A stretch of DNA of 64,000 nucleotides, from contig JALNZC010000001.1 in assembly GCA_023229525.1 (NCBI GenBank), forward strand, positions 31,860-95,859, given 5' to 3'. The stretch comes from Bacteroidales bacterium. GTDB taxonomy: Bacteria; Bacteroidota; Bacteroidia; Bacteroidales; FEN-979. How positions within the stretch are numbered: the stretch's first letter is position 1; every line of letters starts with the position of its first letter. Below are positions 30,432 through 64,000 of the stretch, piece by piece. The position numbers were made by a program, and so were the translations under genes. The notes beneath the pieces are model-generated. The model had not been told where the DNA came from. It did no database searches and saw only the letters and a program-made list of their open reading frames with translations.

Positions 30432-32021
30432 TTATTTCTTTTCCTCGTACTTACGGGAAATCTCCTTACATATCTGTTCCATGGTTTTAACATCTTCATC
30501 AAGAAGTTGGCCTGATTTCAGATTTTTAAGGATCCCGGGCTGGTTGTGTTCCATATACGAAAGGTATTCAACTTCAAAATTATGGATGTTTCGTACAGGT
30601 ACATTTCTCAACAGACCACGGGTTCCGCAGAAGATGATGGCAATTTGCTTTTCGACCGGCATGGGCGAATATTGTGGTTGCTTGAGGATTTCCACATTGC
30701 GGGAACCTTTATCCAAAACGGCCTTGGTGGCAGCATCAAGATCGGATCCGAATTTGGAGAATGCTTCAAGCTCACGGAATTCTGCTTGATCGAGCTTCAG
30801 GGTTCCGGCGACTTTCTTCATCGATTTGATTTGTGCATTTCCGCCAACACGGGAAACAGAAATTCCGACGTTGATGGCCGGGCGAATACCGGCATTGAAA
30901 AGCGGGGTTTCCAGGAAGATCTGTCCGTCGGTGATGGAGATCACATTTGTAGGGATATAGGCCGATACGTCTCCGGCCTGGGTTTCGATAATGGGTAATG
31001 CCGTGAGCGAACCGCCGCCCTTTACCATATCGCGGATAGTGTCGGGCAGATCGTTCATTTGACGGGCAATTTCATCGGATGAAATAATTCTGGCTGCCCT
31101 TTCCAGGAGGCGGGAGTGAAGGTAAAATACATCGCCAGGATAAGCTTCACGTCCGGGGGGACGACGGAGCAGCAGGGACACTTCCCGGTAAGCAACAGCC
31201 TGTTTTGAAAGGTCATCGTAAATAATCAGCGCGGGTCGTCCGGTATCTCTGAAAAATTCCCCGATAGCAGCTCCTGCAAAAGGAGCATAAAATTGCATGG
31301 CGGCAGGGTCGGAAGCAGTAGCGGAGACAACCACGGTATATTCCATTGCGCCTTTTTCTTCCAGTGTTTTAACAATATTGGCAACGGTAGAACCTTTTTG
31401 ACCGACTGCCACATAAATGCAAAACACGGTTTCACCTCTGGCGTGAAATTCTTTTTGGTTGATGATAGTATCAATGGCAATGGCTGTTTTCCCTGTTTGG
31501 CGGTCGCCGATGATCAGTTCGCGCTGACCCCGTCCGATAGGGATCATGGCATCGATGGGCTTGATACCGGTTTGCAATGGCTGATTCACCGGTTGACGGA
31601 AAATAACACCGGGGGCTTTCCGTTCCAATGGCATTTCATAGCGTTTTCCTTCAATCTTTCCTTTACCGTCAAGAGGTTCTCCCAGTGTATTGATGACACG
31701 TCCGAGTAACCCTTCACCTGCTTCTATGGAAGCGATCCGGCGTGTGCGCCTTACTATATCTCCTTCCTTGATTTCATAAGATTCACCAAGCAAAACGGCG
31801 CCGACATTGTCCGCTTCAAGATTGAGTACGATGGCTTTCAGTCCGTTTTTTTCAAACTCGATCAATTCTCCCGATTCAGCATTGTTCAAGCCATAAATCC
31901 GGGCGATACCATCACCCACCGTAAGCACGGTGCCAACCTCTTCAAGTTCTTTTTCACTTTGATAACCGGCCAGTTCTCTGCGAAGAATCGCAGTAACTTC
32001 CGCGGGTTTAATCTCAGCCAT
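30432..32021 (-). CDS. atpA: F1 ATP synthase alpha subunit
   Basis: Walker A GDRQTGKT plus conserved [14 protein letters not shown] and operon context. Confidence 0.97.
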
Positions 32022-33473: not shown

Positions 33474-33522
33474 AAAAAATTCAAAACTTAAAACTCAAAA
33501 TTCAAAACCAAAATAAAAAACC
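33474..33522. repeat. Tandem heptamer array (TCAAAAY), about 6 units
   Basis: tcaaaac ttaaaac tcaaaat tcaaaac caaaata aaaaacc in the atpB-atpE spacer. Confidence 0.7.
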
Positions 33523-33539
33523 ATTTCTTCATTCTCAAA

Positions 33540-33595
33540 TCGTCCCTCGTCCTTCGTCCCTCGTCTTTCGTCCATCGTCCTTCGTCCCTCGTCCT
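33540..33595. repeat. Tandem heptamer array (TCGTCCY), 8 units
   Basis: tcgtccc tcgtcct tcgtccc tcgtctt tcgtcca tcgtcct tcgtccc tcgtcct; the last unit overlaps the atpB stop codon. Confidence 0.85.
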
Positions 33596-38195: not shown

Positions 38196-38909
38196 ATGGG
38201 CTTGATCCTTTGTTTGGAGACTGCGACAGAGGTTTGTTCCGTTGCTCTGGCTTTGGATGGTAATTTGTTGAAAATCAAAGAATCGAGTTCACCCAATGTC
38301 CATTCATCCCAACTTACCCTTTTTATCGAAGAAATTGTTCATTCCAGTGAATTTACCCTTTCCGGTCTCGATGCGATAGCCGTAAGCATGGGTCCTGGCT
38401 CATATACCGGTATACGCATAGGAGTTTCCACCGCCAAAGGCCTTTGCTATGCCCTCGATAAACCACTGATCGCCATACCCACGCTCCAATCCATGGCCCA
38501 GGGCATGAAAAATCATTTATCCGGCATCCAGTATCCGGCATCCGGTATCTCTTTAATTTGTCCGATGATCGATGCCCGCCGGATGGAAGTCTACGCTGCG
38601 ATTTACGATAGCGAATTAAACACTGTCAGGGAAACTTCAGCTCAGATTATCGACAGAACAACATTTACGGAATACCTGACCAATTCAGCTATTCTATTTG
38701 CCGGAAACGGAGCATCGAAATGCAAGCCATTTCTGGAACATCATAAAAATGCTGTTTTTATCGAAAACTTTGCTGCTTCTGCACGTTTTATGGTTTCATT
38801 TGCAGAGCAACGATTAACCCGGAAACAATTTGAGGATATCGCTTATTTTGAACCCTTTTACCTGAAAGATTTTATTCCCGGAAAATCAAAGGTAAAAGGA
38901 CTAAATTAA
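38196..38909 (+). CDS. tsaB: tRNA t6A37 threonylcarbamoyl-transfer protein TsaB (YeaZ)
   Basis: ILCLETATEVCSVAL start, GPGSYTGIRIGVSTAKGL motif, IDARRMEVY. Confidence 0.9.
   Translation: MGLILCLETATEVCSVALALDGNLLKIKESSSPNVHSSQLTLFIEEIVHSSEFTLSGLDAIAVSMGPGSYTGIRIGVSTAKGLCYALDKPLIAIPTLQSMAQGMKNHLSGIQYPASGISLICPMIDARRMEVYAAIYDSELNTVRETSAQIIDRTTFTEYLTNSAILFAGNGASKCKPFLEHHKNAVFIENFAASARFMVSFAEQRLTRKQFEDIAYFEPFYLKDFIPGKSKVKGLN
38521..38548 (+). repeat. Heptamer array CCRGYAT x4 inside tsaB
   Basis: ccggcat ccagtat ccggcat ccggtat, translated as SGIQYPASGI. Confidence 0.75.
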
Positions 38910-38915
38910 CATCCA

Positions 38916-40097
38916 ATGATCAACAACCATTCATTCACAAGATTTCAAACCCGTGTTGTTCACATTGGGAATCTCCCCCTTGGCGGGAATTATCCGGTAC
39001 GGGTGCAGTCGATGACAAATACAAATACACTGGATACATCGGGAACAGTCGCACAAATCGAACGGATGATCAATGCCGGTTGTGAATATGTCCGGATTTC
39101 CACGCCAGGACTGAAAGAAGCTGAACATCTCCGAACCATAAAGCACGAACTGGTTAAACGCGGTTATCACACACCTTTGATTGCCGATGTTCACTTCAAT
39201 CCGAAAGTTGCTGAATTGGCAGCCACTTTGGTTGAAAAAGTCAGGATAAACCCGGGAAATTATGCAGATAAGAAAAAGATACAAGATGCAGGATACAGGA
39301 TACAGGATAAAAATTATCAGCAGGAGTTGGAGTACATTGCTTCCCGTTTGAAACCACTGATTACGATTTGTAAGGAACATGGAACGGCTATCCGTATCGG
39401 CACCAATCATGGATCGCTTTCCCAAAGGATTCTGGATCGTTTTGGCGACACGCCCGAAGGGATGGTTGAGTCGGCGCTGGAATTTGTCCGTATTTTCGAA
39501 GGATATGATTTTCATGACCTGGTTCTTGCCCTGAAAGCCAGCAATCCGAAAGTAATGATCCGGGCCAACCGCCTCCTCGTGGAAACCATGAAACAAAACG
39601 GGATGAATTATCCGCTCCATCTGGGTGTAACCGAAGCAGGATCGGGTGAAGAGGGCCGTCTTAACGCTGCTGTCGGGATCGGTAGTTTACTGACCGATGG
39701 CATAGGGAACACCATCCGGGTTTCGCTTACCGAAGATCCGGAGTTTGAAATTCCTGTTGCCTATGGAATTCTTCAGGCATCCGGTGCACGGATCACCCGG
39801 ACTGAGTTCATCTCCTGCCCATCTTGCGCCAGGACCAAGTTTAACATTCTGGATGCGGTTGAAACCATTAAAGCCCGTACCGGCCATTTGAAAGGATTGA
39901 AAATCGCCATTATGGGGTGCATCGTCAATGGGCCGGGTGAAATGGCCGATGCCCATTATGGTTACGTGGGTGCCGGCAAAGGAAAAGTGATACTGTACAA
40001 AGGACAGGATCCTGTAAAAAAGAATGTGGATGAATCTGAAGCCGTTGGAGAGCTTATCAACCTGATCAAGGAACATGGAGATTGGGTGGATCCGTAA
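38916..40097 (+). CDS. ispG: 4-hydroxy-3-methylbut-2-en-1-yl diphosphate synthase
   Basis: VRVQSMTNT, RINPGN, IRIGTNHGSL, LGVTEAG, and the C-terminal cluster Cys ISCPSCART...GCIVNGPGE. Confidence 0.95.
   Translation: MINNHSFTRFQTRVVHIGNLPLGGNYPVRVQSMTNTNTLDTSGTVAQIERMINAGCEYVRISTPGLKEAEHLRTIKHELVKRGYHTPLIADVHFNPKVAELAATLVEKVRINPGNYADKKKIQDAGYRIQDKNYQQELEYIASRLKPLITICKEHGTAIRIGTNHGSLSQRILDRFGDTPEGMVESALEFVRIFEGYDFHDLVLALKASNPKVMIRANRLLVETMKQNGMNYPLHLGVTEAGSGEEGRLNAAVGIGSLLTDGIGNTIRVSLTEDPEFEIPVAYGILQASGARITRTEFISCPSCARTKFNILDAVETIKARTGHLKGLKIAIMGCIVNGPGEMADAHYGYVGAGKGKVILYKGQDPVKKNVDESEAVGELINLIKEHGDWVDP
39278..39312 (+). repeat. Heptamer array GATRCAR x5 (reverse-complement phase of CCTGYAT) inside ispG
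   Basis: gatacaa gatgcag gatacag gatacag gataaaa, translated as KIQDAGYRIQDK. Confidence 0.75.
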
Positions 40098-53750: not shown

Positions 53751-55970
53751 TCATGTTTTACCTAAATGCCGGATCCGGAATACCGTAAAAATGACATACA
53801 TATAATGAAACCACACCAGTGACAGCAGCACAATGAGCGTGTACACCATCCACAGAGGGGCATCGGTATCGCCCAAACCGCGTTTGATTATCTTTGTCGG
53901 GGGTAATGGTTTTCCCCAGTTTATTGTACCGCTTACTTCTACATTTCCATAGTTATCATTTTCTTCCACTTTGGCTACAAGGGTGAGATAACCGAGTTGA
54001 TTTCCAGGGATGGACGTCGGAAACTCCAGACTGGCTGAACCATTGGTTATGGCTGCCTGTCCGACTTTCAGCAAACTGAAGGTACGTGGAACGTAAAATT
54101 GAACATCGAGATTTTCAACCGGGATCCATTCATTATTTTTTCCCGGTTCAAAAGCCTTCAGGTTGACCATTTTTTCTCCTTCTTTTTGAAAAAATGACAT
54201 TTCCATCCGCAAAGGTTTCATCGTTGTGCGCGCTAAAGCCTTGTCGTAATTGTCTTTTCCTGAAAATGACGCTTCAAATGAATAAAATCCTTTATCTCCT
54301 CCCGATGCGATAATTTCATCAGGAATAGCGAAAGTCGCAATCCCTTTGTCATTGGTCGTGTTTGTGCCAAGGGGTGTCTCCGTCTTACCCTGGAGAACTT
54401 TACAACCGATTTCCATTCCCGGAAGGGGCATGTATCTTCCATCTATTTTTGCACGCAGGGTCGCTTTGAGATTTTGGACCGAATCAATATGGAAATACTC
54501 TAGCTTCAGTACCGTCTGAACAGGTCCTTCTTCCTGTGCAATGACCCTGGGTGTTGAAGCGATCATGAGCAGGATGATAATTCCTGTTACTACGACATCA
54601 CTTTTTTTACGCTGCCTTATCACCTTTTTCATCTGTTTTTCAAAAACGATTTTCCTCAACCTGGAATAGTCTTTTTCTTCCCCACTTCTGACTACCGGTA
54701 TGATTGGAATAAATTTCGAAAAAAGATAGAAAAGCAGAATAAAAAGAGCGATCCCTGCGAAGGTCAATGCCCATTCAACCCATGTGGCGGAATAATGAAC
54801 ATATTCTGGCCGGAGGTCATGAATGGGTAGCATAGGGGTTTCGAGGGTGGGGATGATGATCAGGTATCGTTTAACCCATAGGGCAAGCACTGCAATGCAG
54901 GCAGCAAAAGCGATGGAGTTGATGTTGCGGAACTTCGGGACGGTCACAATGATGATGGGAACCAATACTCCGATGAAAACGGCAAAAACAAACAGGTGCC
55001 AGTACTCGCTGGGATTAAACAGCCTGAACAACACTTCCATGTCCCATTTGATAGAACCATACCAGCTGGTCAGGTACTCGCTGAAGGTAAAATAGCCATA
55101 CATCGCGCCCAAAACGATCATGATGATGCCCAGATAATTAAAATGAATTTTAGTGATATGCGATTCAAGGTGGTATACCTTTCTGAATACCCACATCACC
55201 ATGATCAATACACCAGTTCCGGAATAAACGGCTGCAATGACGAAATAGGGAGCGAAAATGGTGCTGTGCCATCCCGGCCGAAGCGTCATTCCGAAAATCC
55301 AGGCAAGAACAGAGTGAACCAGGATGGCCAGCGGGATGATTACGATCGACAATAAATCAGTCGATACATTCAACAGCTCTTTTTGCTTGGTGCTGTCCTT
55401 ATAGCGAACTGCCATGAACCGGTAGATGGGGTTCCGCCATCTGGCAGTCTTTACAGGGTTATCTCTCAGGATGGCAAGATCGCGGATCATTGCAAGATAG
55501 AGAAAAATAATGCTGCCTGAAAGGTATGTGCTGATGGCGATGACATCCCATATTATAGGGGATTGTATCCTTCCGAACAGGATGAGATTCGGTAAACGGT
55601 CCAGGCGTCCGATACAAAGCAGGATATAAGCAGGTCCGATCATCGTGGAGATTACTGTGATCATCTCGGCCATCCGGATGATGGGTGTCCGCCAGGGGAC
55701 CCTTAAAAGGTGCAGGATTCCAGAAATCAAAGCCCCGGCATAACTGATTCCGATGAAAAAGATAAAGTTAACGATGTATAATCCCCACACCACATTGTCG
55801 CGCATGCCGGTTACAATATGTCCATCCACAATCTGAATATATAACGCGTACATGCCGAATCCCATTACCAATAAGAGAAAGACAACCAGGGCAACGCCCT
55901 TTTTGCTCATTTTCTCCAACTGGGGTTTGAATGCATAAAGATTTTGCTGTGTTTTTTCGTCCTCGTACAT
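53751..55970 (-). CDS. NrfD/PsrC-family quinol-interacting membrane subunit fused to an approximately 270-aa C-terminal domain and terminal TM
   Basis: About 10 TMs in the first 450 aa with NrfD-like spacing. Next comes a TM (VVVTGIIILLMIA), a soluble beta-rich region (QEEGPVQ...INWGKPLPP) and a final TM (LWMVYTLIVLLSLVWF). Confidence 0.7.
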   Translation of the reverse strand: MYEDEKTQQNLYAFKPQLEKMSKKGVALVVFLLLVMGFGMYALYIQIVDGHIVTGMRDNVVWGLYIVNFIFFIGISYAGALISGILHLLRVPWRTPIIRMAEMITVISTMIGPAYILLCIGRLDRLPNLILFGRIQSPIIWDVIAISTYLSGSIIFLYLAMIRDLAILRDNPVKTARWRNPIYRFMAVRYKDSTKQKELLNVSTDLLSIVIIPLAILVHSVLAWIFGMTLRPGWHSTIFAPYFVIAAVYSGTGVLIMVMWVFRKVYHLESHITKIHFNYLGIIMIVLGAMYGYFTFSEYLTSWYGSIKWDMEVLFRLFNPSEYWHLFVFAVFIGVLVPIIIVTVPKFRNINSIAFAACIAVLALWVKRYLIIIPTLETPMLPIHDLRPEYVHYSATWVEWALTFAGIALFILLFYLFSKFIPIIPVVRSGEEKDYSRLRKIVFEKQMKKVIRQRKKSDVVVTGIIILLMIASTPRVIAQEEGPVQTVLKLEYFHIDSVQNLKATLRAKIDGRYMPLPGMEIGCKVLQGKTETPLGTNTTNDKGIATFAIPDEIIASGGDKGFYSFEASFSGKDNYDKALARTTMKPLRMEMSFFQKEGEKMVNLKAFEPGKNNEWIPVENLDVQFYVPRTFSLLKVGQAAITNGSASLEFPTSIPGNQLGYLTLVAKVEENDNYGNVEVSGTINWGKPLPPTKIIKRGLGDTDAPLWMVYTLIVLLSLVWFHYMYVIFTVFRIRHLGKT

Positions 55971-55979
55971 AGTTCGTGT

Positions 55980-56936
55980 TTATTCAGTTATGTTAGCTTC
56001 AGTTTTATATAGCGCTATTTCCTCTTCACTCAACCCTTCGAATCCCACTTTGTAATCAAAAGCGCGGTCAACTGCCGGCAGATAATATACACTGGGCTCG
56101 GTGCCAAGTTCCTCCATAAACCGGTAAGCCGCCCTTGTGGCGATCAGATCGCTGAACCGCACGGTGTCAGTACCATTGGTAACTGCATCTTCGTTTTTAT
56201 CACCATAATAAAATACACCGTTGGGGCAGGAAGTAACACATGCCGGTAATTCACCTTTTCTGACCATATCGGGACAGAAATCGCATTTACTGACAGTGCC
56301 GATTTTTGGTGGGGTACTGGTTTCAGGAGAATAGGCGGCAGCATTCATTTTTTTATCCATTTTTGGCTCTTCCCAGTTGAATACCCGTGAAGAATAGGGA
56401 CAAGCAGCCATGCAAAATTTGCATCCGATGCAGCGGTCATTGTCAATCAGTACGATCCCGTCGGTACGTTTGAACGTGGCGCCTACGGGACAAACCTTGA
56501 CACAGGGCGGATTATTGCAATGCAGGCAAGGTTTTGGGAACCAATAGGGTGACATGTCCGCGGAGTCACGCATCAGGTAAAATTTTATCCATTCCATATG
56601 TGGTGGGAGGAAGTGCATTTTCTGACATCCCTGCAAGCATTTCCTTGCATTTCTACACTTCGCCAGGTCGATCACCATCACCATTCTTTTATCAGGTAAT
56701 CCTTGCCGGGCTTCAAGGTTTCCTGCCGGCTGACAGCACACGTGTCCTTTGTCAACCTCCACCAGCTTTCCATCTGGTGTAAGTAATTTTATCTTCTCCC
56801 CGGTCTCTTTGCCGTCTTTGCTGTCAGGTTCTGAAATGGCAGACAAAACGCTGTTACCTCCGGTTATGATGGCAGTGGTTCCTGCAGCAATTCCCAGTTT
56901 CAGAAAATTTCTGCGGTTGGTCAAACGTCTTTCCAT
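55980..56936 (-). CDS. Tat-exported 4Fe-4S ferredoxin subunit (NrfC/PsrB/HybA type)
   Basis: Twin-Arg leader RRNFLKLG and multiple Cys clusters (CLHCNNPPCVKVCP, CIGCKFCMAACP, CDFCPD...LPACVTSCP). Confidence 0.85.
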   Translation of the reverse strand: MERRLTNRRNFLKLGIAAGTTAIITGGNSVLSAISEPDSKDGKETGEKIKLLTPDGKLVEVDKGHVCCQPAGNLEARQGLPDKRMVMVIDLAKCRNARKCLQGCQKMHFLPPHMEWIKFYLMRDSADMSPYWFPKPCLHCNNPPCVKVCPVGATFKRTDGIVLIDNDRCIGCKFCMAACPYSSRVFNWEEPKMDKKMNAAAYSPETSTPPKIGTVSKCDFCPDMVRKGELPACVTSCPNGVFYYGDKNEDAVTNGTDTVRFSDLIATRAAYRFMEELGTEPSVYYLPAVDRAFDYKVGFEGLSEEEIALYKTEANITE

Positions 56937-57886: not shown

Positions 57887-59800
57887 TTATTTCAGGTGTT
57901 GACCCAGGAATTTTTCCATGGCCCTGTAAAAATCAAACCTGTTTTCTTCGTTGTGAAATCCATGACCTTCATTGTCCTTGATCATATATTCTACGGTTAT
58001 CCCACGTTTCTTTAAGGCATTGACCATCTGGTCCGATTCATTAATGTTTACACGGGGATCGTTTTTCCCCTGAGCCACAAACAACGGTGTTTTTATCTTA
58101 TCGGCATTCAATGCCGGAGATGTGGCAATGAACTGTATACTGTCAGCTTTCGGATCTCCCACCATTTCGTACATCATGTCTAGCATGGGTTTCCAATATG
58201 GGGGGATGGTCTTCAGAAAAGTAAACAAATTGGATACACCCACATAATCAACTGCTGCGGTATAAAGATCAGGTTCTCTTATAATGCCCTGAAGTGTGGC
58301 GTACCCACCGTAACTTCCACCGTAGATGGCGATCCGCTTCGGATCGGCAATGCCTTTGTCGATCAGCCATTTTGTTCCATCGGTAATGTCGTTCTGCATG
58401 GTAAGCCCCCATTGTTTGAACGACTTTTCCCAGAAATTACGGCCATAGCCGGTCGATCCGCGGAAATTCATTTGCAATACTGCATACCCGCGGTTAGCCA
58501 GGAACTGAACTTCCGGATTAAATCCCCAGCTATCCCTGGCCCATGGTCCTCCGTGAGGATTTACAACCACCGGGAGGTTCCTCGCAGTCTCCATGGTATA
58601 GCCGACCGGAAGGGTCAGATATCCATTAACCATTACGTTGTCCCTTGTTTTAAATTCAACGGGAAGCATTTCTGCCAGTTCGTCTTCCTTGAGCCAGGTA
58701 AAAAGATCAGCGACCTTTTGTAAGGTGTCTTTTACATTATCATACACATAATATCCTCCCAGCGACCGGTCACTGTATGCGCGGATCATAAATTTATCTT
58801 CTGCCCTGGTAAATGAAGTGATATTGAATGTATAATTACCCAACTGTTTTTGAATTTTCGCGTACAACTGTTTTGCTTCTTCATCGAAGTAATAACGCTC
58901 CGGCTTCCACGATTCGTAATTCGCGGCAATAAGGCGCTTTTTACCATGCGACCAGACCACATCGCTGACATCAAAGTCCTTGTTTTCATATAAAGTCTGT
59001 ATTTCCTTCCCATTTGCAATGTCAAAAATTACCACGGCACTCTTATCCCTGCCCAGATTCGATGTGGCATATACGTTTTTATTGTCGAATGTGAAAAGCA
59101 TCGGGTAAAGGGATTCCTTAAAATTAGTCGTCAATACCGGCTTGAACTTTTCCGTTTCCTTTTCACGATAGAGGACCTGTGTATTTATCCCGTCCACAAT
59201 TGCGGTAGCTGCTCTCAGTTTGCCATCGTGGTCCACGATCCATCCCTGGATATTCCCCGGATTTTCGGCCAATTGCTTCATTTCACCGGTGATAATATTC
59301 AGTCTATAGGGATCAAACGCTTCGGGATTCCGCTTGTTAAGGCCAATGATCATTTCATTGGGAAAGTCATAGAGATCATCAAGAATTTCAGTCCTCACTT
59401 TAGGAAAATCAGTGAAACATTTCAAGTTGGAGCCGTCGATGTTCACACCGTAAAGTTTGAAGTTTTCATCACCTCCGGTATCCTTCAGGAATACGATCCG
59501 GGAAGGGCTTTTCCAGAAATAAACGGAGATGTCGCGGTCTTTTTCCGAAGTAAGCCGGATTGCGTTTTTCTTTCCAATCTCCTGTACAAAAATGTTCATG
59601 CGCTTTTCGTAAGGGCCCATAAACGAGAAGTATTTTCCGTCGGGGGAAATCTGAAACCGGGCTTTTTCCGGATTTTTAAAGAAATCTTCGAGGGGGATTT
59701 GTCTTACCTGCATTGTTTTTTTTGGTTTACAGCCACCCAGGAGGAGAGCAGCGCTGAGGAGACCTCCCAAAAGGAGGAAAAAGAAAAAACGTGTTTTCAT
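57887..59800 (-). CDS. S9-family serine peptidase (prolyl oligopeptidase / dipeptidyl-peptidase type), lipoprotein
   Basis: LLLGGC lipobox, beta-propeller N-half, catalytic GGSYGGY Ser, Asp (GKNDPRV) and His (EGHGF). Confidence 0.9.
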   Translation of the reverse strand: MKTRFFFFLLLGGLLSAALLLGGCKPKKTMQVRQIPLEDFFKNPEKARFQISPDGKYFSFMGPYEKRMNIFVQEIGKKNAIRLTSEKDRDISVYFWKSPSRIVFLKDTGGDENFKLYGVNIDGSNLKCFTDFPKVRTEILDDLYDFPNEMIIGLNKRNPEAFDPYRLNIITGEMKQLAENPGNIQGWIVDHDGKLRAATAIVDGINTQVLYREKETEKFKPVLTTNFKESLYPMLFTFDNKNVYATSNLGRDKSAVVIFDIANGKEIQTLYENKDFDVSDVVWSHGKKRLIAANYESWKPERYYFDEEAKQLYAKIQKQLGNYTFNITSFTRAEDKFMIRAYSDRSLGGYYVYDNVKDTLQKVADLFTWLKEDELAEMLPVEFKTRDNVMVNGYLTLPVGYTMETARNLPVVVNPHGGPWARDSWGFNPEVQFLANRGYAVLQMNFRGSTGYGRNFWEKSFKQWGLTMQNDITDGTKWLIDKGIADPKRIAIYGGSYGGYATLQGIIREPDLYTAAVDYVGVSNLFTFLKTIPPYWKPMLDMMYEMVGDPKADSIQFIATSPALNADKIKTPLFVAQGKNDPRVNINESDQMVNALKKRGITVEYMIKDNEGHGFHNEENRFDFYRAMEKFLGQHLK

Positions 59801-59940
59801 GCGAAATTATTTTTTCTCAATATTATGAATTATTTCTCTGATGGCGGGCGGTTTTCGATGAAAACGTCGATTTACTCTGCAAATTCGACCGCTAACATGA
59901 TGAAAAATCATATATCTTTGATATCCAGATCAAAAATATA

Positions 59941-61479
59941 TTGGCCAATGGGTCGTTACTTATAAAACTCCGATCAGTGGATATTTACCTCCGGAAAAAG
60001 CGTTGGAAATTCATTTTATTTGCAACGGCAATGATCATCGTAGCCGCGTCGCTTTATTATACGAATATACTTGTCAATGAAATCCGTAAAGATGAACGAA
60101 AAAATGTTCAGATCTGGGCTGATGCTATCCATCAGAAAGCCGATCTGGTGAATTATACCAACAACCTTTTCGAACAACTTAAGAACGAAGAACGGAAGCG
60201 GGTTTCCATTGTAGCCGAAGCCCAACGCCGCATTCTTACGGCCACACCCAACGAAGATTTGAATTTCTTTCTCAGCATCATCGGCGAAAACACCACGATC
60301 CCGGTGATTGTTACCGACGACTCGGGGAACATTATGGCTTCCCGCAATACCAGTCTGAACGAATCGGTTAAAAAACTGGAAGGCCGTCTTCAGCAGGAAT
60401 TTTCAGCCTACCCTCCGATCGTCGTAAACTACATTTACAATAAAAAAATATACCTCTATTACAAAGATTCCAACATCTTTGCCAAACTAAAATCGGTGCT
60501 CGACGACCTGATCCGCTCTTTTTTTTCGGAGGTTGTTCTCAATTCTGCATCTGTCCCCGTTATCATTACCGACAGTACCGGTAAAATTCCTTTTGCTTAT
60601 GGGAATATTCCGGAAAATAAAATGCAGGATAAGTTGTGGGTGCAACAAACCCTGGAGAGTATGGCGTCGCAAAATACACCCATTAAAATTGACCTGGCGG
60701 ATACCGGAATACATTACATCTATTACCAGGATTCATTCCTGCTCACCCAGTTGAAATACTATCCGGTTGTGCAGTTTGGGGTAATCGCGGTTTTTCTTTT
60801 AATCGCATATCTGCTTTTCAGTTATGCCCGGAAATCGGAGCAAAATCAGGTTTGGGTCGGAATGGCAAAAGAAACGGCACACCAGTTGGGAACTCCTTTA
60901 TCTTCTATGATCGCCTGGATGGAATTACTGAAGCTGAAAGGATTGGATGAAGAAACGATACGGGAAATAGAAAAAGATGTGCAACGGCTGGAGACCATCA
61001 CCGACCGGTTTTCGAAAATCGGCTCAGCTGCGCGGCTTGAGAAAACAAACATCGTCGGAATGATCCATGAAACGGTTAATTATATCCGCTCACGCACTTC
61101 GCCAAAAATTACCTTCACCATTAATCCTTCGCGTTCGACTGAACTCTTTGTTCCCTTAAACCTTCATCTTTTCGAGTGGGTCATCGAAAACCTGTGTAAA
61201 AATGCAGTTGATGCAATGGAAGGTAGCGGTACGGTAAATATCGAGATTTCTGAAGATGTCGATCACGTTCATATTGATGTCAGTGACACCGGAAAAGGTA
61301 TTCCGAAATCACGGTTTAAAACCATTTTTCATCCGGGTTTTACCAGTAAGAAAAGAGGCTGGGGACTTGGGTTGACCCTCTCCAAACGGATTGTTGAAAA
61401 TTACCACTCCGGAAAGATCTTTGTAAGATCATCCACCCTGAACAAGGGAACCACCTTCCGCATCATCCTGAAGAAATAA
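59941..61479 (+). CDS. Sensor histidine kinase (two TMs, extracytoplasmic domain, HisKA, HATPase_c)
   Basis: H-box ETAHQLGTPLSS, N-box ENLCKNAVDA, G-boxes DTGKGI and GWGLGL. Non-ATG start in the track, so the start is uncertain. Confidence 0.85.
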   Translation: MANGSLLIKLRSVDIYLRKKRWKFILFATAMIIVAASLYYTNILVNEIRKDERKNVQIWADAIHQKADLVNYTNNLFEQLKNEERKRVSIVAEAQRRILTATPNEDLNFFLSIIGENTTIPVIVTDDSGNIMASRNTSLNESVKKLEGRLQQEFSAYPPIVVNYIYNKKIYLYYKDSNIFAKLKSVLDDLIRSFFSEVVLNSASVPVIITDSTGKIPFAYGNIPENKMQDKLWVQQTLESMASQNTPIKIDLADTGIHYIYYQDSFLLTQLKYYPVVQFGVIAVFLLIAYLLFSYARKSEQNQVWVGMAKETAHQLGTPLSSMIAWMELLKLKGLDEETIREIEKDVQRLETITDRFSKIGSAARLEKTNIVGMIHETVNYIRSRTSPKITFTINPSRSTELFVPLNLHLFEWVIENLCKNAVDAMEGSGTVNIEISEDVDHVHIDVSDTGKGIPKSRFKTIFHPGFTSKKRGWGLGLTLSKRIVENYHSGKIFVRSSTLNKGTTFRIILKK

Positions 61480-61484
61480 TCCCT

Positions 61485-62831
61485 TTGGCCGGCATCTACA
61501 TTCATATACCGTTCTGTAATCGCAAATGTCACTATTGCAATTTTTTTTCACTTGCTTCACAGAAAAACAGAACGGAATTTCTGACAGCGCTGAAAAGTGA
61601 GATAACCCAGACTCGTGATTACCTGGCCGGCGAACCGGTAAATACCATCTATTTTGGCGGAGGAACACCTTCCCTCTACCAACCGGAAGCATTGCAAGAA
61701 GTTTTGGAGATATTAGCTGAATCCCCGAGCCTCCCTGATCCCAAGTCTTCATCCAGCATCCAGCATCCAGTATCCAGCATCCAGCATCCAGTATCCAACA
61801 TCCAGCATCCAGCATCCAGCATCCAACATCCAGCATCCAACATCCAGCATCCAGCATCCAACATCCAACATCCAACATCCAACATCCAGCATCCAGCATC
61901 CAGCATCCAGCATCCAGTATCAACGAGCGAAGCGAGCCTGCATCCTGCATCAACACTTAAGGAGATAACCCTGGAGATAAATCCGGATAACGTGACCAGC
62001 GTGTTTGTAACTGAATTGAAGCATACATGGTTCAACCGGTTCAGTGTTGGGGTGCAGTCGTTTTTTGATGAAGACCTTGACTGGCTGAACCGCGCACATT
62101 CAGCCAATCAGGCGATCGGGGCCGTCAGGTTATTACAGGAAGCGAGATATGAAAACATCAGTATTGATCTGATTTACGGTATTCCATCTTCCACCGATAC
62201 CCGATGGCAGAAAAACCTCGAAACTGCCTTTTCACTTGGCGTTCCGCATATCTCAGCGTATGCCCTTACAGTTGAATCCGGGACCCCGCTTGCATGGATG
62301 ATAAGTAAAAAAAGAATATCACCATTGGATGATGAACTACAGGTAGTCCAGTTTAAAATGTTAATGGAAATGGCCTTGGATCATGGTTTTCAGCAGTATG
62401 AGATTTCAAATTTCGCCAGATCCGGTTGGAACGCAATCCACAACACCAATTATTGGAAAGGAATTCCATTTCTGGGCTTGGGTCCTTCGGCACACAGTTA
62501 CAATGATAACTCGCGGCGATGGAATGTTTCCAACCTGTCGGAATATATTGAACGTATTACCAACGGTGCATGCCTGTATGTGGAAGAACATTTGACCCCG
62601 GAACAGAAATACAACGAATATGTAATGACCTCACTCCGGACGATGTGGGGCTGTGATTCACAAAAACTTATTTACGATTTTGGATCTACGATTTACGATT
62701 TTTTTCGAAAAAACGCTTTACCAATGATCGACCGGGGGTTACTACGGGAGGTTTCCGGAGTTTATTTCCTTACGGATGAAGGGAAGTTGTTTGCTGATGG
62801 GGTGGCGGCAGGGTTGTTTTTGGTGACGTAA
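61485..62831 (+). CDS. hemW: Radical-SAM heme chaperone HemW / oxygen-independent coproporphyrinogen oxidase-like, carrying a repeat-encoded insertion
   Basis: [17 protein letters not shown] (CX3CX2C), [25 protein letters not shown], and HemN_C-like tail. TTG start in the track. Confidence 0.85.
61750..61924 (+). repeat. Tandem heptamer array (CATCCAG)24 plus 1 degenerate unit inside hemW
   Basis: Counted by eye: 24 consecutive YATCCAR units from 61750 to 61917, then tatcaac. All six reading frames are open across the array. Confidence 0.95.
62670..62704 (+). repeat. Heptamer array ATYTACG-like x5 in the hemW 3' region
   Basis: atttacg attttgg atctacg atttacg atttttt, translated as [13 protein letters not shown]. 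Confidence 0.65.
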
Positions 62832-62907
62832 TGTTGATGCCGGATAATGACTCACTTCATTCGCAGGAGTGAGATGCAGAAAGACAAGTAAGAGATGGGA
62901 GATAAAT

Positions 62908-62942
62908 AAATCGTAAATCTAAAATCGTAAATCAAATCGTAG
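62908..62942 (-). repeat. Heptamer array AAATCGT-like x5 (inverted copy of the 62670 array)
   Basis: aaatcgt aaatcta aaatcgt aaatcaa atcgtag; reverse complement of the ACGATTT phase of the upstream array. Confidence 0.65.
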
Positions 62943-63128
62943 TTTTGTAGCCGATGGGCTTTCGTGGTGGAGGTAGCTCTTCTTTTGGCAATAAATCAAT
63001 ATCGCTTTTGGCCGAGGCACTGTCAGTCGCGTAACTCGCGTATAAAAAGCCTTATAAATCGGCAACCCCGATTCATTTAATAAATGAAGATATCTTCTGA
63101 CCAATTCTATAGCTTCTCTTTGAGACAT
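62932..63128 (-). pseudogene. Nucleotidyltransferase (MNT-type) remnant, frameshifted and truncated
   Basis: MSQREAIELVRRYLHLLNESGLPIYKAF in one frame. The NTase motif LYASYATDSASAKSDIDLL follows in the +1 frame after a T5 run (plus-strand A5 at 63044..63048). It stops about 20 codons later. Confidence 0.6.
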
Positions 63129-63296
63129 TGTAACGTGTTTTTTGTCCTGTTAAAGATATCAAGGGTGAGCTGCCGGCCAGGTAAATTGGGATTATAATCC
63201 GGATAACGCCCTTCAATTTGGTGAAAGTAATGAAAATAAATAAAGAATGATTAAATGTCAATATAATGGCAATACCATTTTTTATAAATTTGCTGA

Positions 63297-63608
63297 ATGG
63301 AATTGATTGAAAAAAACAGAGAAAATATTTCAAATCTGTGTGAAAAACATAAGGTTAAAGAATTGTATCTGTTTGGTTCTATCCTATCTGACAGATTTAA
63401 TGATTCCAGTGATATAGATATGCTTATACAATTTTCGAATGTTGATTTACTCGATTATTTTGATAACTATATGGACCTTAAAGAACAGTTCGCGCAATTG
63501 TTAAAAAGGCCTGTCGATCTGGTGGAGGACCAGGCAATAAAAAATCCTATTTTCAGAAAAGTCGTTGACCGCGATAAAGTCTTGCTATATGAACGAAAAT
63601 ATACTTAA
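63297..63608 (+). CDS. mntA: MNT-type nucleotidyltransferase antitoxin
   Basis: LYLFGSILSDRFNDSSDIDMLIQF (GSx10-11DxD) motif, 103 aa; overlaps the HepT start by 20 nt. Confidence 0.85.
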   Translation: MELIEKNRENISNLCEKHKVKELYLFGSILSDRFNDSSDIDMLIQFSNVDLLDYFDNYMDLKEQFAQLLKRPVDLVEDQAIKNPIFRKVVDRDKVLLYERKYT

Positions 63609-63927
63609 ATGCTTATACGACATAAAATTTGCTCTTGACGAGATTGATTCTTACTTTGACCACGAAAATAAATCGTTTGAAAATTATCAGTCGAATATCT
63701 TATTAAAAAGAGCCATTGAAAGAGATTTAGAAATTATTGGTGAAGCAACAAATAGAATTCTGAAGGAAGATCCGGAATTTGAAATTGGAAACGCACACCG
63801 TATTATCGGTTTGAGAAACCAAATAATTCATGGATATGATACAGTTTCAGATGAAAATATCTGGGGCATTTTAATAAAACACCTTCCAAAACTAAAGGAG
63901 GAAGTCAAAAAATTAACAGGTCTTTGA
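63589..63927 (+). CDS. hepT: HepT-type (DUF86) HEPN ribonuclease toxin
   Basis: Rx4-6H motif in GLRNQIIHGYD; ATG 63589 (MNENILKCLYDIK..) preferred over the tracked 63565 start. Confidence 0.85.
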   Translation: MNENILKCLYDIKFALDEIDSYFDHENKSFENYQSNILLKRAIERDLEIIGEATNRILKEDPEFEIGNAHRIIGLRNQIIHGYDTVSDENIWGILIKHLPKLKEEVKKLTGL

Positions 63928-64000
63928 CCCACCCGGTTTGATTTCGCCTGGCCGGGAATAATCGAGTCAACCACTGAAACCTGAAACCTCACTTAATATC

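Follow-up and report, generated by a model that had tools for sequence, protein, structure and literature searches.

The 64,000-nucleotide (nt) stretch analysed here, referred to below as the window, comprises positions 31,860 to 95,859 of contig JALNZC010000001.1 of the Bacteroidales assembly GCA_023229525.1, a metagenome-assembled genome (MAG). It carries a gene for the heme chaperone HemW, in which 24 copies of a seven-base unit, mostly CATCCAG, follow each other head to tail and are translated as part of the protein. We interpret this array as a heptanucleotide long simple-sequence repeat (LSSR) that grew by slippage in the part of hemW encoding a permissive, hypervariable loop, and give this explanation a probability of roughly two in three (0.68). 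Both features that characterise LSSRs, namely tandem 7-nt units far beyond chance and a wider excess of such arrays with diverse units, are found here. The array belongs to a known type and is unusual in its length, its translation in three phases and its setting in a conserved enzyme.

The in-register heptamers occupy positions 61750 to 61917, with 16 units reading CATCCAG, six CATCCAA, one TATCCAG and one TATCCAA, and are followed by a degenerate 25th unit, TATCAAC, at 61918 to 61924. Tandem Repeats Finder (TRF) describes the array with a period of 7, 24.6 copies, 92% matches and a score of 274, by far the strongest tandem repeat of the window, and a 14-mer probe of two units (CATCCAGCATCCAG) matched 26 times in the window with up to two mismatches, as opposed to 0.29 matches expected from shuffled sequences. 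Unit count and TRF thus bear out the array as described in the original prediction, an earlier reading of the bare sequence. Eight of the 24 units are variants, the longest perfect run is five units (35 nt), and the longest exact repeat internal to the tract is 33 nt. The JGI contig Ga0378408_0023536 (L200; 9,366 nt, from sample 3300037067) matches window positions 59672 to 64000 with 100% identity, every unit variant included. The repeat number is 24 in each of these two independent assemblies, and no further strain was found in the protein and contig collections.

The array begins 265 nt into the open reading frame (ORF), in the first fifth of the 448-codon hemW, and position 61750 is the second position of a codon. 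Since 7 and 3 have no common factor, translation passes through all three phases of the array and yields eight repeats of 7 amino acids (aa), S-S/N-I-Q-H-P-A/V/T, each containing IQHP, which agrees with the in-frame protein repeat and the three-phase reading proposed earlier. The 24 units amount to 168 nt or 56 codons, and the frame of hemW is intact; it had also been pointed out, correctly by arithmetic, that the copy number is divisible by three and that a slip of one or two units would shift the frame. Stop codons are missing from all six frames within the 24 units, as predicted, although the degenerate 25th unit introduces a stop into one antisense frame. This stop-free character is not special, as tandem repetition leaves the three sense frames free of stops for 69% of all heptamers, and all six frames for 50%. 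Overlapping antisense ORFs accompany the array, three and not two as had been stated, and we agree that they are by-products of the stop-free unit, without support as genes. For annotation, it may be useful to know that the array spawns three spurious antisense ORFs.

In the degenerate tail of the tract, CCTGCAT differs by one mismatch from a rotated CATCCAG and again encodes HPAS; it looks like a relic or a seed of the array. The variant units show no significant higher-order periodicity of 21 nt (five of eight in one codon phase, P about 0.14 by hand calculation). With a minimum free energy of -4.2 kcal/mol over 168 nt, the array is unstructured as DNA, the mRNA around it folds worse than shuffled controls (RNA z = +2.2), and Rfam gave no match at the array and two sub-threshold chance matches elsewhere.

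Judged by its sequence, the product of the ORF is HemW. It scores 246.3 bits with TIGR00539, whose curated equivalog cut-off is 205.4 bits, and thereby confirms the assignment to a HemW/HemN-like radical-SAM enzyme made in the original prediction; with the HemN, HemZ and ChuW models it stays far below their own cut-offs, and Pfam recognises Radical_SAM and HemN_C. The radical-SAM cluster motif is C11-N-R-K-C15-H-Y-C18-N-F (CxxxCxxC, residues 11-18) and has no fourth cysteine, while the GGGTP motif is formed by G58-G-G-T-P62. HemN, by comparison, has an N-terminal extension and a fourth cysteine (CxxxCxxCxC), both of which HemW lacks. In an alignment of 49 sequences, every invariant column is kept in the HemW of the window. 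The identical protein is recorded as NCBI MCK9421038.1, on a Bacteroidales MAG contig of 226,279 nt of which IMG also has a copy. Heme binding and delivery to respiratory enzymes are traits of the HemW family, to which the present product was assigned from sequence. It shares with the HemW/HemN family (TIGR00539; Escherichia coli HemN 1OLT) the cluster motif followed by N-F, the GGGTP motif, the HemN_C domain and a HemN-like fold, and differs in the spacer between GGGTPS and EITLE, which is 96 aa long instead of the usual 24.

An AlphaFold2 (AF2) model, calculated with the 49-sequence alignment, has a mean predicted local distance difference test score (pLDDT) of 83.5, a predicted template modelling score (pTM) of 0.81 and a confident core. 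Its best match in the PDB is HemN 1OLT (E 9e-22, TM 0.71). Residues 88-155 are located between a helix (67-78) and a strand (160-165), with confident core on either side, so that in the model the insert is in the alpha2-to-beta3 (helix-2 to strand-3) loop of the radical-SAM barrel. From the topology of the beta/alpha barrel, this loop would lie on the face opposite the Fe-S cluster and the S-adenosylmethionine (SAM) site. The original prediction had correctly placed the insert in a loop between the motifs YFGGGTPS and EITLEINP, and modelling was suggested to see whether it forms a surface loop between two strands; the model gives a disordered loop, but one that follows a helix and precedes a strand and does not directly connect two strands. 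According to the model, the array adds a predicted-disordered segment rich in Ser, Gln, His and Pro to a HemW that is otherwise intact.

The same loop is hypervariable among the orthologues. Of 61 metagenomic Bacteroidota HemW loci, 48 have a GGGTPS-to-EITLE spacer of exactly 24 aa; among the 118 closest homologues the length of this spacer varies between 19 and 96 aa, exceeding 30 aa in 64 and reaching at least 60 aa in 11 of them, with the window HemW (96 aa) and P0052 (80 aa) as the longest. The original prediction had named equally long, non-repetitive loops in orthologues as evidence against itself, and the comparison revealed loops of comparable length, up to 80 aa against 96. None of the other orthologues' loops contains the repeat of the window. 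A P-S-P-x-G-E-G signature is present in 33 of the 118 closest homologues, and in the orthologue loci examined the DNA behind it is a hairpin with a perfect 9-bp stem (CCCCTCTCC-N4-GGAGAGGGG) that is translated in frame. In the hemW loops of L124, L127, L130, L132 and L134 this hairpin is translated as (S)PPDPSPxGEG(R) and is sometimes duplicated. By its sequence, it looks like an element of the repetitive extragenic palindromic (REP) or miniature inverted-repeat transposable element (MITE) kind living within a coding region. The loop of P0005 has an insert, RRDAKAQR...LRLCVSA, which appears palindromic from a reading of the peptide, and that of L137 contains a short heptamer tract of the GTCACGC type (lag-7 identity 0.42). 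In the window, the left flank of the array is similar to the hairpin element in its 5' half but has no CCCCTCTCC-N4-GGAGAGGGG stem; it may be a remnant of the element.

These inserts point to the loop as an insertion-tolerant, general sink for repeat DNA in this clade. The hemW array resembles low-complexity inserts and translated REP/MITE hairpins in permissive loops in its position in a surface loop, its predicted disorder, the intact catalytic motifs and the unrelated inserts found at the same point in orthologues, and differs from them as a 7-nt microsatellite-like array that is neither codon-based nor palindromic. As an insertion-tolerant site, the alpha2-to-beta3 loop of HemW may serve protein engineering.

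Seven-base arrays are abundant beyond this loop. TRF reported 10 rows of period 7 in the window, while 1.67 were expected and a maximum of 6 was reached in 30 Markov-1 simulations, an approximately sixfold enrichment, and in 398 kb of HemW-orthologue loci, chosen without regard to repeats, period 7 is the commonest with 33 rows; the excess was thus measured on 64 kb of this genome and on related loci. Within genes of the window, further arrays are translated in tsaB and ispG (Table 1), and in an alignment of the tsaB product with Salmonella YeaZ a gap of 8 residues falls at the array. The tsaB peptide, SGIQYPASGI, is similar to the hemW repeat. Because tsaB, ispG, a second hemW site and intergenic DNA contain arrays as well, the hemW array is to be regarded as one case of a genome-wide mutational habit and not as a targeted switch. 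Two intergenic arrays directly adjoin the stop codon of the minus-strand ATP synthase A-chain gene, and on the transcript strand their (GGGACGA)8 part has a spacing as in a G-quadruplex-type repeat; related CGGGACG arrays are located downstream of hemW in L123 and L124.

The second site in hemW itself, a short array in the HemN_C part, can be followed through the clade. At the homologous site, every close orthologue (61-75% identity) has an array of about 4.5 units that is equal in length and position but differs in its unit: GATTTAC in L120 and L121, a perfect TTCGGAT (x4.3) in L126, TGACGAA in L127, AATGACG in L137, AATTATG in L132, a perfect TTACAAA (x4.3) in L134, and AAATTAC and AAATTAA in L129. 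The protein alignment across the site has zero indels among close orthologues, and the lag-7 identity is 0.29-0.71 in the clade (at least 0.34 in all loci bar one), while more distant orthologues stand at about 0.25. The pattern suggests that a coding heptamer array has evolved in concert under a constraint on its length, and the comparison indicates that coding arrays turn over by a DNA-level process with selection holding the frame. An intergenic array downstream of hemW is the inverted complement of this array, and positions 62670-62695 and 62907-62932 form an inverted repeat of 26 nt (92% complementary, arms 211 nt apart) that brackets the hemW stop codon at 62829..62831.

Among genomes in general, the CATCCAG unit is unexceptional. 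At least 119 stretches of GTDB genomes, spread over many phyla, contain (CATCCAG)3, as do 16 stretches of viral contigs; in the viral contigs, three permuted heptamers of matched composition yielded 15, 10 and 35 stretches. Since the permuted controls are about as common, no dedicated element or horizontal spread is needed, and CATCCAG as a special, horizontally spread family was rejected. In two Verrucomicrobiota MAGs, CATCCAG arrays in the SSIQHPA reading and orientation are located in interdomain linkers of TilS and Mfd, and this speaks for an ability of housekeeping proteins to take up such arrays in their loops and linkers. A protein search with (SSIQHPA)x8 returned only 47 short hypothetical ORFs and was blind to repeats embedded in long proteins, as it also missed the HemW of the query. 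The GTDB arrays (L001-L119) have up to 42 units and very often stand at contig ends (L001, L005, L027, L032, L078, L115, L116), and heptamer arrays seem to be a common cause of assembly breaks in MAGs. Five or six CATCCAG loci are present in several GTDB genomes, among them Calditrichia HK-STAS-CALD-2 and Bacteroidetes LacPavin MAG_47_11.

Heptanucleotides are the most abundant class of LSSRs in most prokaryotic genomes according to Mrazek et al. (2007) as summarised in later papers, and polymerase slippage has been proposed as their cause (PMC4679880; PMC4692102); the same data set is cited in a review (PMC11868660). For Bacteroidetes and Cyanobacteria, intergenic arrays with as many as 43 heptamer copies have been described (PMC4679880), and the statement in the original prediction that such arrays were not known for Bacteroidota is therefore only partly true. 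Coding regions are under-represented among the described LSSR sets (PMC4692102), and repeats inside coding regions were observed earlier to have mostly a unit length that is a multiple of three (PMC4679880). With prokaryotic LSSRs, including the tandem heptanucleotides of cyanobacteria, the window shares head-to-tail 7-nt units, tens of copies, diverse units per genome, a sporadic phylogenetic distribution and the proposed origin by slippage, together with its sixfold excess of period 7. However, the described LSSRs are overwhelmingly intergenic, whereas the 24 units here are translated in three phases within a conserved enzyme.

According to the explanation proposed here, the Bacteroidales lineage would generate seven-base arrays everywhere, also within genes, and replication slippage would have grown the array within the loop-coding part of hemW. 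An intragenic array would survive if its unit is stop-free in the sense frames, as CATCCAG and its variants are, if its net length is frame-neutral, as with 24 units, and if its peptide is a harmless, hydrophilic and disordered linker that spares the fold. Slips of three units would lead to length variants and slips of one or two to null alleles, both of which we regard as by-products rather than a selected switch. Even today the tract is probably unstable in length, and an elevated frequency of frameshift null alleles is a plausible by-product. The array would then be a natural example of a non-triplet microsatellite absorbed by a conserved enzyme by means of a stop-free unit, a frame-neutral count and a tolerant loop.

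Several points weigh against this explanation. With 24 units, the array is longer than the other intragenic heptamer arrays observed, whose unit number is 4-8, and something specific to the hemW site may favour or tolerate expansion. An intact frame has a one-in-three chance anyway and is weak evidence of selection. In four assemblies, contig breaks fall exactly at heptamer arrays, for which heterogeneity of the population is one possible cause. Finally, eight histidines are added to a protein whose family binds heme, and a gain of function is conceivable.

The original prediction regarded the array as a contingency locus, that is, a selected phase-variation switch in which the gain or loss of one or two units turns HemW off and on in a subpopulation. 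The case made for it was one of geometry, and we consider it unlikely. A unit whose length is not a multiple of three is indeed found within the coding region and close to its start, the present copy number preserves the frame, coding heptamer arrays turn over in the lineage, as the 3' site of hemW indicates, and the contigs L201-L204 end at array edges, possibly due to heterogeneity. Heptanucleotide tracts are, moreover, accepted phase-variation elements in Haemophilus influenzae, whose tetra-, penta- and heptanucleotide contingency loci likewise have an intragenic non-triplet tract near the 5' end (PMC2651432; PMC8262952; reviewed in PMC11868660). However, the hemW tract is imperfect, with a longest perfect run of 35 nt in place of a long perfect tract, and lies in a gene for a housekeeping chaperone of an environmental MAG, not in a surface, restriction-modification or host-interaction gene that would favour stochastic switching. 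The other intragenic arrays concern tsaB and ispG, that is, no such class of gene either, and arrays are also present in the 3' region of hemW and in intergenic DNA, while the CATCCAG unit recurs elsewhere, in TilS and Mfd. In orthologues, the HemW loop accommodates non-slippery inserts as long as 80 aa, and the 24 units are the same in two independent assemblies. Classical contingency loci, by comparison, have near-perfect tracts in surface, lipopolysaccharide, adhesin or restriction-modification genes of host-adapted bacteria, with ON and OFF lengths among isolates. The breaks of the Logan contigs, finally, may have other causes, for instance low coverage or ambiguity arising from the 33-nt internal repeat at k=31, the k-mer length at which Logan assembles. 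If ON and OFF lengths did exist, phase variation by simple-sequence repeats (SSRs) would extend to a housekeeping heme-handling gene of a free-living anaerobe.

It is considerably less probable that the eight His/Pro heptads are kept as a functional protein repeat with a new property, for instance as heme or metal ligands or as a flexible docking arm. Such a role could be seen in the eight histidines gained by a member of a family named heme chaperone (NCBIfam TIGR00539) and in a tract that is both long and in frame. However, the periodicity is 7 nt and not 21 nt, which shows an origin at the DNA level, the SSIQHPA peptide is also found in TilS and Mfd without a known connection to heme, no orthologue has a repeat of the SSIQHP type, the segment is predicted to be disordered, and the unit variants lead to S/N and A/V/T changes without visible constraint.

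That the array was delivered in a MITE- or REP-like insertion and did not grow in place is very improbable: the translated hairpin element in orthologue loops, the one apparently palindromic element and the resemblance of the left flank to the 5' half of the hairpin would fit such a footprint, but the array flanks have neither terminal inverted repeats nor a target-site duplication, the sole inverted pair touching the array is only 75% complementary over 32 nt with 876 nt in between, the tract is unstructured as DNA and RNA, and permuted heptamers form arrays about as often as CATCCAG.

The possibility that the copy number or the entire array results from a collapse or expansion in a short-read metagenome assembly ranks equally low. 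The source is a MAG, the tract of 175 nt exceeds the typical short read of 150 nt, similar arrays in other genomes are often at contig ends, and Logan contigs halt at the array edge. The contigs of four other assemblies end at heptamer arrays, L201 at 61925, L202 and L203 at 62701 and 62713, and L204 at 62921, and these breaks fit repeat ambiguity and population heterogeneity alike. However, L200 matches the array and all variant positions exactly, the variant units render every k-mer of at least 34 nt unique, the reading frame is kept, and both halves of HemW are conserved. As the longest internal repeat is 33 nt, any assembly with k of at least 34 resolves the array, and together with the identical independent contig this makes an artefact, which the original prediction had named as grounds for giving up its claim, unlikely. 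L200 was one of five contigs returned by a look-up of the neighbouring MntA protein, and the only one of them to span the array, and it was returned again by the look-up of a histidine kinase; a look-up of the Crp-like regulator gave two short Logan contigs, neither of which reaches the array, and one of a 43-aa antisense ORF returned nothing. A search of 5.8 billion proteins with HemW found, apart from the source protein, no relative above 75% identity, exact-protein look-ups of HemW gave no match, and a metagenome contig scan with the C-terminal 294 aa found only orthologues of at most 75% identity, which are useful for the loop and not for the copy number.

Slippage in a permissive loop thus remains the preferred explanation of the hemW array, and the dominance of period 7 in the clade, with units that turn over at a fixed length, is the more interesting lead and bears on the question of why seven is the favoured unit of long SSRs in prokaryotes. 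To our knowledge, coding heptamer arrays across a clade and their concerted evolution have not been described. We put forward, as a rather improbable speculation based on the HemN_C site of hemW, that the clade may own an undescribed DNA-level process which creates and continually homogenises seven-base arrays within essential genes; the CATCCAG tract would then be the same process unchecked in a permissive loop, and hemW and perhaps many other genes would be stochastically switchable.

Table 1. Positions of the hemW array and of the associated features in the window.
Feature	Position	Strand	Description and basis
hemW, radical-SAM family heme chaperone	61485..62831	+	448 aa, TTG start, intact; TIGR00539, Pfam, AF2, alignment
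CATCCAG array	61750..61917	+	24 units; TRF
Left flank of the array	61721..61749	+	encodes SPSLPDPKS; contains CCCTGATCCC; CCCTGAYCCC (P-D-P) common to the inserts of L124, L127 and L134
Degenerate tail of the tract	61918..61955	+	TATCAAC, 13-nt spacer GAGCGAAGCGAGC, CCTGCAT x2.1 (TRF row 61937..61951)
Predicted disordered loop, residues 88-155	codons 61746..61949	+	AF2 pLDDT <50, no secondary structure
Three overlapping antisense ORFs	61429..61956, 61676..62107, 61749..61913 (span 61429..62107)	-	read LDAGCWM repeats
Short array in the HemN_C part of hemW	62670..62701	+	ATTTACG x4.6; TRF
Intergenic array	62907..62941	+	TAAATCG x5, inverted complement of the 62670 array; TRF
tsaB array	38518..38549		YATCCRG x4.6, in frame, peptide HLSGIQYPASGIS
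ispG array	39278..39309		GATACAG x4.6, in frame
Two adjacent intergenic arrays	33476..33595		AAAACTC x5.6 and TCGTCCC/T x8, downstream of the ATP synthase A-chain gene

Directly downstream of hemW, at 63297..63927, overlapping genes encode an MntA-like nucleotidyltransferase (Polbeta/NTP_transf_2) and a HepT-like RNase, a toxin-antitoxin pair, and the short contigs L202 and L203 both terminate at 63782, inside hepT. Further upstream in the window, at 53751..56936, the gene of an NrfD-like membrane subunit (739 aa) adjoins that of a 4Fe-4S dicluster protein, and the sequences of this pair suggest a respiratory module of the polysulfide/tetrathionate type or one resembling alternative complex III. 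Multiheme cytochrome genes (Cytochrom_C552, Cytochrom_NNT) are located in L200 just past the end of the window and, together with the putative respiratory module, would fit an anaerobic respirer in need of heme delivery.

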